This document shows, piece by piece, positions 49,701 to 52,700 of a DNA stretch of 64,000 bases (the first letter of the stretch is position 1; every line of letters starts with the position of its first letter). The stretch lies in assembly GCF_030013595.1 (NCBI RefSeq), contig NZ_CP122768.1; one strand, 5' to 3'. This stretch comes from Escherichia coli. GTDB lineage: Bacteria > Pseudomonadota > Gammaproteobacteria > Enterobacterales > Enterobacteriaceae. The position numbers are program-made.

Positions 49701-52700
49701 CTGGACGGTTTTACATCGCGCGGCTTTGACGATCACAGCAAACTCTTCTTTCCTCAATCTGATGCTCACTTTGTGCCGCCAACGGTAACGGAAGAGGGCA
49801 TCGTCTGGCCGGAAGGACCACGCCCACCGTCGCGTGACTATACGCCGCTGTATGACGAACTACGCCATGAACTGGCGATTGATTTCTTTATTCACGACGG
49901 TGGCGTCGCCAGCGGCTGGGCGATGCAGGCGCAACCGGGCGATAAACTCACGGTGGCAGGTCCGCGCGGTTCGCTGGTGGTGCCAGAGGATTACGCGTAT
50001 CAGCTGTATGTCTGCGATGAATCCGGAATGCCCGCACTGCGCCGCCGCCTGGAAACGTTGAGCAAACTTGCCGTTAAACCGCAAGTTAGCGCGCTGGTTA
50101 GCGTGCGGGATAACGCCTGTCAGGATTATCTCGCGCACCTTGATGGTTTTAATATCGAATGGCTGGCACATGATGAGCAGGCAGTAGATGCGCGTCTGGC
50201 GCAGATGCAAATCCCTGCCGATGATTACTTCATCTGGATAACCGGCGAAGGCAAAGTCGTTAAGAATTTAAGCCGCCGCTTTGAAGCGGAACAGTATGAT
50301 CCACAGCGGGTACGTGCAGCGGCTTACTGGCACGCAAAGTAACTGATATATAAAAAGAAAAAGGCTGACGATTTCTCGTCAGCCTTTGCTATGTCTGGCC
50401 CTGCTGTCTCTTAATTGGTTGTGTAATTAATTGAAATTAAACAGGTAAATGCAATTTATTTTTTATCGATATGCCTTTTTGTATGCCTATTGGGAAAAAC
50501 ACGCTTTCTTCAACAGGGAATAAAAGCCGCTTTTATGGTGTTTTGAAACGGGTTTTAAAATGGCGCTCGTGGTGCTCTCGGGCACTCAATGGCGCTCTGT
50601 GATGTGGCTGGTGGTATGTGGCCGCCATGCATAATGGGGCTGATTTTGTTCATGGCCCGGCAGCGGGTGAGCATTTTTTACCATATTCAGGGTAAAAATG
50701 GGCGAAAAAGTTCATTTCTGGCATGGCCTGAAATGCCACGCAGCCCGCGCCGCGTGTGCTCTTGCCGGGGAAAACGGCGCGGAATAATGACCGCCACCCC
50801 ACCTTATGGCGGGCAGTCCCACGAAATCCCGGTTATTTCCGTTTATTCCCGGATTAATCCCGCCTTCTCCCGCATTCTCCCGGCTGTTCCCGGAATTAAT
50901 CGCCGTGGGGTGGTGGTTATCTGGTGTGGTCGTAGTTCTGCCGTAGTCGTTCACCCTCAGCGCAATGACGCGGTTTTTTAACGCCGCTGGTAACGCAACG
51001 CGGGCAGGTCATGACGTGGCTGATATACGCATCACGGGCAGCCAGCCACGTCGCTGACGGGGCGCACATATCCGCCAGCGCCTGGCCGTTGCTGGTGGTG
51101 TTGTCTTCCGGCCATGTTTCGGGCTGGTGCGCTTCCGGTAAATCCGGTGCAGGTAATGCCCGGATAAACTCACACAATGCATCCGGCAGGCTGAATAACT
51201 TATGCATAAATCTGATGTTCTGAATCGCTGAAAACGTGCGTTTTATGGCGTTTTTTCGTGATTTCTGCGTGTTCTGATGTGCTCATTTCGCTGTATCCCT
51301 TGTGTGGCGCGGGCTGCGCGTGTGTTTCGGTGTTCTTTTTTACCGCCAGAAAACGGTAATCAGGCATATAAACACGGCTGTAAGCCGCGCCGCGTCTGGC
51401 TTCGCGTGATTTTGTGCGTCAAAAAGTGCATTTTTGCCCTTAAAAAGCGTTATTCGTAATTCACTGGTAAATGCTCCGCAGGCCGCGCCATTGCTGGCCT
51501 TTTCGCTATTCTGTGTGGTTTTGCTGTTTAACCCGTTTTGCACACTAAAATTGCCTTGCATCCCGCGCCACGTAAGGGATTGCCGGGTTTTTATGTTGCG
51601 TTTTTTGCCGTGCGTAATATTGTGCAAGTTGGTGGGACTGGTGGGAACTGTGGGAACCGCCTAGAACCACGCGGCTTTCAGTGGTTCCCACCAGTTCCCA
51701 CGTTGGCTTTTTGTGGGAACCGTGGCGGTTATTTTTTGTTCTTTGCGGTTCCCACCAGTTCCCGCAGAGTTCCCACTCAAAAACGAACAATAATCATACT
51801 GATGGTTTTATTATTTACTGATTTATATATGTTTTATTTTTACGGTTCCCACAGTTCCCACCAGTCCCACCACTTTTTCAGTTTTTAAAAACGCAATTTT
51901 TGTGAATTATTCATCAATTGCGAATAACAATGCATTCTGGCCGATGGCGTAAACGCGGTGTTTCTCCCCGTTAACGGAAACGCGTTTTGTGTATCGGCGT
52001 TTCCCGTCCGTGTCGCGGTCAACAATCGCGCCAGCATCGTCAAGACTGGCCGCTATGCGTTTCAGGTCGTAGCCGCTGGCCGCCTCACATAGTGCTTCCG
52101 GTAAAAACCAGTAAACCCGCTCGCCGTTGCTCCCCGGTCGCCACCATCCGGCGCGGGTGCTTACTGGTTCGCTGTATGTGCTGCCCCCTTCAAAGCGTGA
52201 AGCATGGCGGGCGATAAACCCCGCGACGGCCCGGAGTATTTTCACGTCCTCCGATTGCCCCCGCCCACGATAGTCCGCCCACGCATCAAACATCGCTTTC
52301 ACTGCCTCCAGTGCTTCGCCCTGTTTCCACGGCAGAATCCCGGCAGTTATCGCCATTTCCCCGGCCAGTGCGCACAGTGTGAAACGCGCGGCGGCGCGTG
52401 CCTCCTGTCCGGTGCTTACGGGGAATTGTTCGCGCAGTATGGCGTACATATCCGCCAGCGTCTGGCCGTTGCTGTCGGTGCTGGTGGTGTCACTTTCATT
52501 GCGGGAAATCAGCCAGCGCACAAACTCCGGCCCGGCGTGGCCGTAATGGGTAGCCGCATTACCGCGCAGTGTTTCGGCAAATTTCCGGCCTGCTCCCCGG
52601 CGTTCTGTGTCGTTGTCGGGGTTGTGGGGTAGTGCCATTCCGTGAAGACAGTCAAATGCCCCGTAAAGCCGCTGTGCCGGAATATCCAGTAACCGCATTT

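Follow-up and report, generated by a model that had tools for sequence, protein, structure and literature searches.

A putative iteron-type replication origin downstream of a DUF927 helicase gene in a small Escherichia coli island

We analyzed a 64,000-nucleotide stretch of E. coli DNA (contig NZ_CP122768.1, assembly GCF_030013595.1), referred to as the window, which contains an integrated island of about 8.3 kb resembling phage-inducible chromosomal islands (PICIs) and the satellite P4. An array of 8-bp iterons at 51630–51872, directly 3′ of the island's helicase gene, is with a probability of roughly 85% the vegetative replication origin of this satellite-type island, and it would work independently of DnaA. 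Directly computed results carry this reading: how the array is built, which family the helicase belongs to, arrays at matching positions in relatives, selection acting on iteron bases, and the likeness to an origin tested by experiment. The RefSeq annotation, as read from identical E. coli genomes, has no entry across 51208–51906, and the origin reading gives this unannotated 700-bp gap a specific and testable function. An original prediction had placed a likely replication origin at 51631–51875. Its coordinates were correct, and the assignment is supported computationally by the position of the array, its counterparts in 12 of 14 relatives, the conservation of the iterons, and the layout of the EcCICFT073 origin.

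Anatomy of the array

The array begins 35 bp past the helicase stop codon, as expected from the proposed location immediately downstream of the gene. Nine exact octamers (GTGGGAAC or, in the other orientation, GTTCCCAC) span 51641–51861. Together with three degenerate copies (GTGGGACT at 51632, GTTCCCGC at 51758, and GTCCCACC at 51863), the total is 12. Elsewhere in the whole 64 kb, the exact octamer occurs only once, at 11335. Dinucleotide-preserving shuffles gave a mean count of 1.75, and none of 100 reached 10. At least ten octamers in both orientations had been predicted; the two orientations are confirmed, whereas ten is exceeded only when the degenerate copies are included.

The iterons form five blocks with a spacing of 9–11 bp within blocks. 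The distal outer block (51630–51659, plus strand) contains GTGGGACT, GTGGGAAC, and GTGGGAAC at 9-bp spacing, and the helicase-proximal outer block (51843–51872, minus strand) contains three iterons, also at 9-bp spacing. These two triplets are the left and right arms of a perfect 30-nt inverted repeat, separated by 183 nt. Between them, starting from the distal side, lie a 14-bp non-iteron spacer that reads CACTGAAAGCCGCG on the helicase strand (51670–51683, minus strand), an iteron pair at 10-bp spacing (51684–51701, minus strand; GTTCCCAC on the plus strand), a lone iteron in the opposite orientation (51713–51720, plus strand), and the iterons GTTCCCAC, GTTCCCGC, and GTTCCCAC at 10- and 11-bp spacing (51748–51776, minus strand). 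The last of these blocks adjoins an AT-rich stretch.

This stretch (51777–51843) is the presumed DNA-unwinding element. It is 67 bp long with about 18% GC, in agreement with the predicted AT-rich region of roughly 60 bp flanked by octamers. It is off-centre: towards the helicase gene it is followed by three iterons, and the other nine lie on the opposite side. Of all 60-bp duplexes in the island, it has the lowest stability as judged by nearest-neighbour free energy (−63.6 compared to a mean of −88.1, standard deviation 6.5), and it ranks second lowest across the whole window.

Other signals were sparse. No terminator-like site was found on the helicase strand between the helicase stop and the array, and a scan of 50350–52050 gave no sigma-70-like promoter. 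The array contains no consensus DnaA box, the only one found being outside it at 51536–51544. Scans for integration host factor sites and GATC gave nothing notable within the array, and Rfam returned just one sub-threshold chance match there. Clustered regularly interspaced short palindromic repeat (CRISPR) arrays consist of direct repeats of about 24–48 bp with unique spacers of similar length. A CRISPR array is ruled out here, as had been predicted, because the repeats are 8 bp long, occur in both orientations, and are spaced at 9–11 bp.

The initiator helicase and the arrays of its relatives

The presumed initiator is a DUF927 helicase of 612 amino acids (51907–53745, minus strand; Pfam DUF927, E = 1e-82). 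Its C-terminal region can be aligned with the corresponding domain of Cch from the staphylococcal cassette chromosome SCCmec. A profile of eleven members of the helicase family matched SCCmec Cch (5DGK) with E = 8e-32, aligned through Cch residue 544 of 603, and matched 8TCH, the replication initiator helicase of the staphylococcal pathogenicity island (SaPI) SaPIbov1, with E = 9e-31. The AlphaFold model (mean predicted local distance difference test score 71) found Cch 5DGK as its best PDB match (E = 1e-19), then 8TCH (E = 3e-17), and then MCM proteins. Sequence, profile, and predicted fold thus agree in placing the protein in the DUF927/SCCmec Cch/SaPIbov1 Rep family of self-loading initiator helicases. 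A relationship to the helicase of P4 alpha was not detectable, as BLASTP gave E = 0.35 and hhalign aligned Toprim columns only.

The primase is encoded separately (53726–54769, minus strand; 347 amino acids from the RefSeq start, with the longest open reading frame reaching 54919). It is annotated in RefSeq, matches Pfam Toprim_3, and shares 36% identity with the P4 alpha Toprim domain (E = 2e-14). An alpha-like primase-helicase had been predicted; the likeness to alpha holds for the primase, but the helicase is of the DUF927/Cch/Rep type. A small E. coli island would therefore use a self-loading helicase of the SaPI Rep/Cch type as its initiator, and not one of the P4 alpha type.

The family assignment leads to a mechanism, the steps of which are drawn from work on SaPI Rep and Cch. 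SaPI Rep is a self-loading helicase with a C-terminal winged helix that reads iterons, and the C-terminal domains of Cch and SaPIbov1 Rep bind iterons situated just downstream of rep (PMC9371898). By analogy, the C-terminal winged-helix domain of the DUF927 helicase would recognize the GTGGGAAC iterons, and the iteron blocks flanking the 67-bp AT-rich stretch would serve as assembly sites for helicase hexamers. The duplex would then melt at this stretch without DnaA, the helicase would load itself, and the separately encoded Toprim primase would lay the first primers. Helicase binding, duplex melting, and replication at the array are all understood here in this conditional sense.

The array has counterparts in relatives of the helicase. 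We collected 16 genome loci encoding helicase homologues with 34–99% identity, of which 14 were usable, the window itself excluded. A locus was counted when its densest or tied-densest 7-mer cluster lay 3′ of the helicase stop at a distance of no more than 400 bp. This was the case for 12 of the 14 relatives and for the window itself. The relatives thus carry locus-specific iteron arrays at the matching position 3′ of the helicase gene, each with its own repeat word. The word is GTGGGAAC in E. albertii and Tenebrionibacter (L002, L005), GAAGACA in one Pseudomonas locus (L003), CCGGGAACA in three others (L004, L006, L007), GTAACAC in Oxalobacteraceae (L008), GGTGAC in Paraburkholderia (L017), GCCCCGA in Methylobacillus (L011, L016), GGGGAACA in Xanthobacter (L013), and GCGTGAC in a metagenome-assembled genome of uncultured Gammaproteobacteria (L014). 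A recurrent plan combines outer inverted blocks at 9-bp spacing with mixed inner blocks. The gene following the array differs among the relatives (integrase, portal, Mor-like activator, or hypothetical protein). As the downstream gene varies while the array stays, the array travels with the helicase. How these helicases read their origins could be studied in this natural series of position-matched proteobacterial origins with differing iteron words.

Selection on the iterons can be seen between E. coli and Tenebrionibacter, where 92 of 94 iteron columns are identical compared to 101 of 147 other array columns (Fisher p = 1.6e-9). At the level of sequence comparison, selection preserves the iteron bases. 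The AT-rich stretch of Tenebrionibacter has retained its length and AT-richness, and its sequence has diverged. A scan of IMG/VR with a 19-mer from the array gave three loci. One is a true relative (L028; helicase 86% identical, 8 iterons). The other two were rejected, L026 as a 19-mer coincidence inside coding sequence and L027 because it has no helicase relative.

Two copies in one genome (L010 and L011) allow a closer look at specificity. Identity between the two helicases is 97% over the DUF927 domain and 77% over the C-terminal part. The arrays are colinear, and an A-to-G change recurs in the iterons. This pairing of C-terminal divergence with a concerted iteron change is suggestive.

Several observations weigh against the assignment of the array as an origin read by this helicase. 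The Pfam match of the helicase to the helix-turn-helix domain of Cch (HTH_56) is weak (E = 0.003). Among relatives with different iterons, divergence in the C-terminal domain exceeds that in the core only modestly, and the comparison of iteron columns with other columns between L010 and L011 was not significant (p = 0.46). For these last two reasons, we ascribe iteron binding to the helicase by homology only. The array after the L010 helicase gene is weak, and no obvious array follows the gene in L015 or in vB_Pae_U10, a 10-kb phage record with a 38% identical helicase. Finally, the iterons adjoining the AT-rich stretch on either side are co-oriented, whereas SaPI origins are described with opposed iterons.

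Some relatives showed further features. Second, equally strong iteron arrays occur in Methylobacillus (L011:580-680 and L011:5800-5920; 5.1 kb upstream, inverted) and in Xanthobacter (L013:9040-9140 and L013:5770-5860; 3.4 kb downstream), an arrangement that recalls either the ori–crr pair of P4 or adjacent elements. A 10-kb "phage" record (L023, PP003922.1) encodes an integrase, regulators, a Toprim primase, a DUF927 helicase, and a P2-type capsid gene, and relatives of the module are present in the 7–11 kb "plasmid" records NZ_KR106191.1 and OX345456.1. Such small records are probably excised or packaged satellite forms. The 6.4-kb plasmid pTAO100 was discarded as evidence for sufficiency because it also encodes RepM.

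The host island

The island spans about 50399–58716 at tRNA-Ile2 (tRNA gene at 58713–58788). Island-free genomes align up to window position 50398 and then go on into tRNA-Ile. All genes lie on the minus strand in the order P4-type integrase, a 296-amino-acid protein, an AlpA-like helix-turn-helix protein, the Ash/Icd region, two small open reading frames, Toprim primase, helicase, the array, and a 96-amino-acid open reading frame. Within the Ash/Icd region, Rfam matched the C4 antisense RNA (79.6 bits) and isrK (60.7 bits) above the gathering threshold at 55613–55841 (minus strand), and c4-a1b1 (38.6 bits) below it in the same region. By these matches, the region is a P4/P1-type RNA immunity module. 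The 296-amino-acid protein between int and alpA (56370–57248, minus strand) had no match in PHROGs, nor in NCBIfam or Pfam when permissive thresholds were allowed, and the 96-amino-acid protein after the origin (50917–51207, minus strand) gave no match in PHROGs, the sole database run for it. The genes for both proteins are retained in element copies at both attachment (att) sites described below.

As in Gram-negative PICIs, int, alpA, and pri/rep point in one direction, the element is small and sits at a PICI-type att site, and no structural or lysis genes were recognized. The packaging feature of that class, a cos or pac site with Rpp or TerS, was not found in the island. PHROGs and NCBIfam recognized no capsid, terminase, lysis, packaging, or partition gene, and sid, delta, and psu were not found. 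Allowing up to 3 mismatches, P2/P4 cos had no match, and with up to 1 mismatch, lambda cosN had a single match inside the primase gene that is compatible with chance. The distal 811 bp of the island matched no phage record. We infer the satellite status of the island from its gene content. To this extent, the label "satellite" from the original prediction can be kept, but no packaging gene or known cos site accompanies it.

Of 5426 complete E. coli genomes, 31 carry the replication module. Two att sites are used, tRNA-Ile2 and yicC-dinD, each with its own integrase; yicC-dinD is a PICI att site in Table S1 of PMC6092414. Beyond E. coli, the module was found in E. albertii and Tenebrionibacter, and it spans three genera in all. 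EcCIRM13514, located at the yicC-dinD site, was rejected as the same replicon because its Pri-Rep differs and is of the alpha type. Gram-negative PICIs have been described as int-alpA-pri elements with the origin downstream of pri, and the described sets include DUF927 "primases," C4/isrK matches, and tRNA-Ile2 insertions (PMC10111431).

The rarity of the island (31 genomes), the ash gene annotated as a pseudogene in RefSeq, and the lack of recognized packaging or capsid genes and of a recognizable cos would all fit an inactive relic origin in a decaying island. We rank this explanation lowest of those considered, as helicase and primase are intact. Between island copies at the two att sites, the ratio of nonsynonymous to synonymous polymorphism (pN/pS) is 0.08–0.15 for the helicase and 0.03–0.09 for the primase; by this measure, both genes are under purifying selection, which indicates a live module. 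The preservation of the iterons in comparison to a diverged relative and the spread of the module over two att sites, different integrases, and three genera also argue against a relic.

The array might also be a binding array of another function, such as an operator, a partition or packaging site, or a set of recombinase arm sites, recognized not by the helicase but by another protein. Such sites, too, can contain short phased repeats facing both ways, and the binding of the helicase rests on homology. Against this, no sigma-70-like promoter was found in 50350–52050, no partition or terminase gene in the island, and no P2/P4 or lambda cos match in or near the array, the lone lambda cosN near-match being inside the primase gene. 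Candidate integrase arm repeats (TATGCCT) are located at the island ends instead, and the array follows the helicase gene although the relatives' downstream genes differ. Another function of this kind is therefore very unlikely, and a replication origin remains our preferred assignment.

Close to each end of the island (50468–50489 and 58569–58590) stands one copy of a 22-bp direct repeat, GATATGCCTT..TGTATGCCTA. The repeat is absent from the island copy at yicC-dinD, whose integrase differs, and probably represents a pair of arm-type integrase sites.

A second repeat array was noticed at 50791–50916, about 0.8 kb from the main array. It comprises AGTCCCAC at 50814, TCCCG at 50827, 50847, 50858, 50868, 50878, and 50888, and TTTCCG at about 50836. 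The units (50814–50895) resemble the iteron core, all point in one direction with a 10–11 bp phase, and are bracketed by the inverted repeat CCGCCACCCCAC / GTGGGGTGGTGG. This is the densest TCCCG cluster of the 64 kb (6 per 100 bp compared to a mean of 0.18), and it is about 96% conserved in element copies at the other att site. It could be a crr-like, copy-control, or packaging site.

Comparison with known origins

EcCICFT073: In this island, pri-rep together with ori is reported to drive plasmid maintenance, and deletion of ori to reduce it (Fillol-Salom et al. 2018, PMC6092414). We located this origin at L021:3997-4262. As in the window, it lies just 3′ of the initiator gene, measures about 230–245 bp, and has outer blocks with 9-bp spacing that form an inverted repeat about 185–190 bp apart, with mixed inner iterons. 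Two iterons at 9-bp spacing follow right after the stop codon and are succeeded by the AT-rich stretch, which in the window likewise follows the first block. Just before the last block and its terminal inverted pair is the spacer CACTGAAAGCCGCG (L021:4181-4194), identical to that at 51670–51683 of the window. The island context also agrees, with int, alpA, an Icd-like gene, and replication genes in one direction. The differences concern the iteron, which is of a TCTACC type and not GTGGGAAC, the length of the AT-rich stretch (about 39 bp compared to 67 bp), and the initiator, a D5_N/DUF5906/Pox_D5 Pri-Rep without Toprim in place of a DUF927 helicase with a separate primase. In BLASTP, this initiator and the window helicase gave E = 0.012.

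The spacer CACTGAAAGCCGCG can be aligned in six origins. Allowing up to 1 mismatch, GCTGAAAGCC is present in the origin region of 7 of 14 loci, compared to 0.04–0.26 expected per locus. In the Pseudomonas, Methylobacillus, and Oxalobacteraceae relatives, CACTGAAAGCCGCG is degenerate. A neighbouring motif, CATTACTG(G), is present in EcCICFT073 (within L021:4181-4204), in several relatives, in a 7-kb Salmonella record, and in P4 ori (motif loci include L018:9341-9348 and L024:6396-6403). The window array reads TTCTAGG where the others have CATTACTG(G).

Preservation of the spacer motif under unrelated initiators hints at an additional factor. A bolder idea, which we consider doubtful, is that P4, Gram-negative PICIs, and elements with DUF927 helicases have in common a deep, modular scaffold for their origins, of which the window array would be one instance. 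The iteron word would be swapped to match the initiator, and a non-iteron core (CTGAAAGCC, in many TTACTGG) would persist under unrelated helicase families. Separately, in what would be a minimal island without packaging genes, the array at 50814–50895 could assist the origin as a partner of the crr or copy-control kind. If true, the common scaffold would imply a further common factor, e.g., a host protein or a priming start site.

P4: The octamer iterons of P4 ori and crr also occur in both orientations with 9–11 bp spacing. P4 ori consists of three iterons (10- and 11-bp spacing) followed by CATTACTG and an inverted iteron; an AT-rich stretch and then two further iterons complete a plan that resembles the window array. 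A homologous primase domain and the P4-type C4/isrK immunity RNAs are further likenesses. However, the type I iteron of P4 is TGTTCACC and not GTGGGAAC/GTTCCCAC, and alpha is a fused primase-helicase, whereas the island encodes separate proteins with a helicase not detectably related to alpha. P4 ori and the distant crr share iterons; in the island, one exact cluster was found, together with the degenerate phased TCCCG array about 0.8 kb away. Finally, the island is without sid, delta, psu, and P2/P4 cos. The same plan, with GGTAACA iterons, recurs in a Salmonella record of 7 kb that encodes a fused DUF927 primase-helicase.

The likeness to P4 raises the question whether the array is a cis-acting accessory site, like crr or copy-control iterons, with initiation elsewhere. 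P4 crr has the same position, directly 3′ of alpha, as the array has with respect to the helicase gene; the degenerate phased array at 50814–50895 and the two equal iteron clusters of some relatives also point in this direction. On the other hand, the island's least stable duplex falls inside the array, exact iterons were not found clustered anywhere else in the island, and the position-matched array of EcCICFT073 is reported as needed for plasmid maintenance (PMC6092414). We give an accessory role a slim chance, the best among the rival explanations, and retain the array as the origin.

SaPI and SCCmec: The helicases of SaPIbov1, SaPI1 (Rep), and SCCmec (Cch) belong to the same family by sequence and fold. 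SaPI origins have six to twelve short iterons just downstream of rep that flank an AT-rich region (PMC9371898), and the island has 12. SaPI and SCCmec are Gram-positive elements with iterons of 5–6 bp, and their AT-rich region is roughly central and flanked by opposed iterons. In the island, the stretch is off-centre (3 vs. 9 iterons) and its adjoining iterons are co-oriented.

Iteron plasmids: Origins of the RepA/Pi/TrfA class differ from the array in that no winged-helix Rep gene was found in the island and the sole DnaA box is outside the array. In the searchable literature, the octamer together with "iteron" led to no related context, only to unrelated Streptomyces and Neisseria plasmid papers.

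The predicted analogy to P4 ori/crr with a different octamer thus holds for the octamer and for the layout of P4 ori. Nevertheless, the closest model is the PICI/SaPI origin, because the helicase is not alpha-like but DUF927/Cch/SaPIbov1 Rep-like. The architecture is already published for PICIs, and the array is built like the origins described for such islands; the current picture of satellite replication is unchanged by its discovery.

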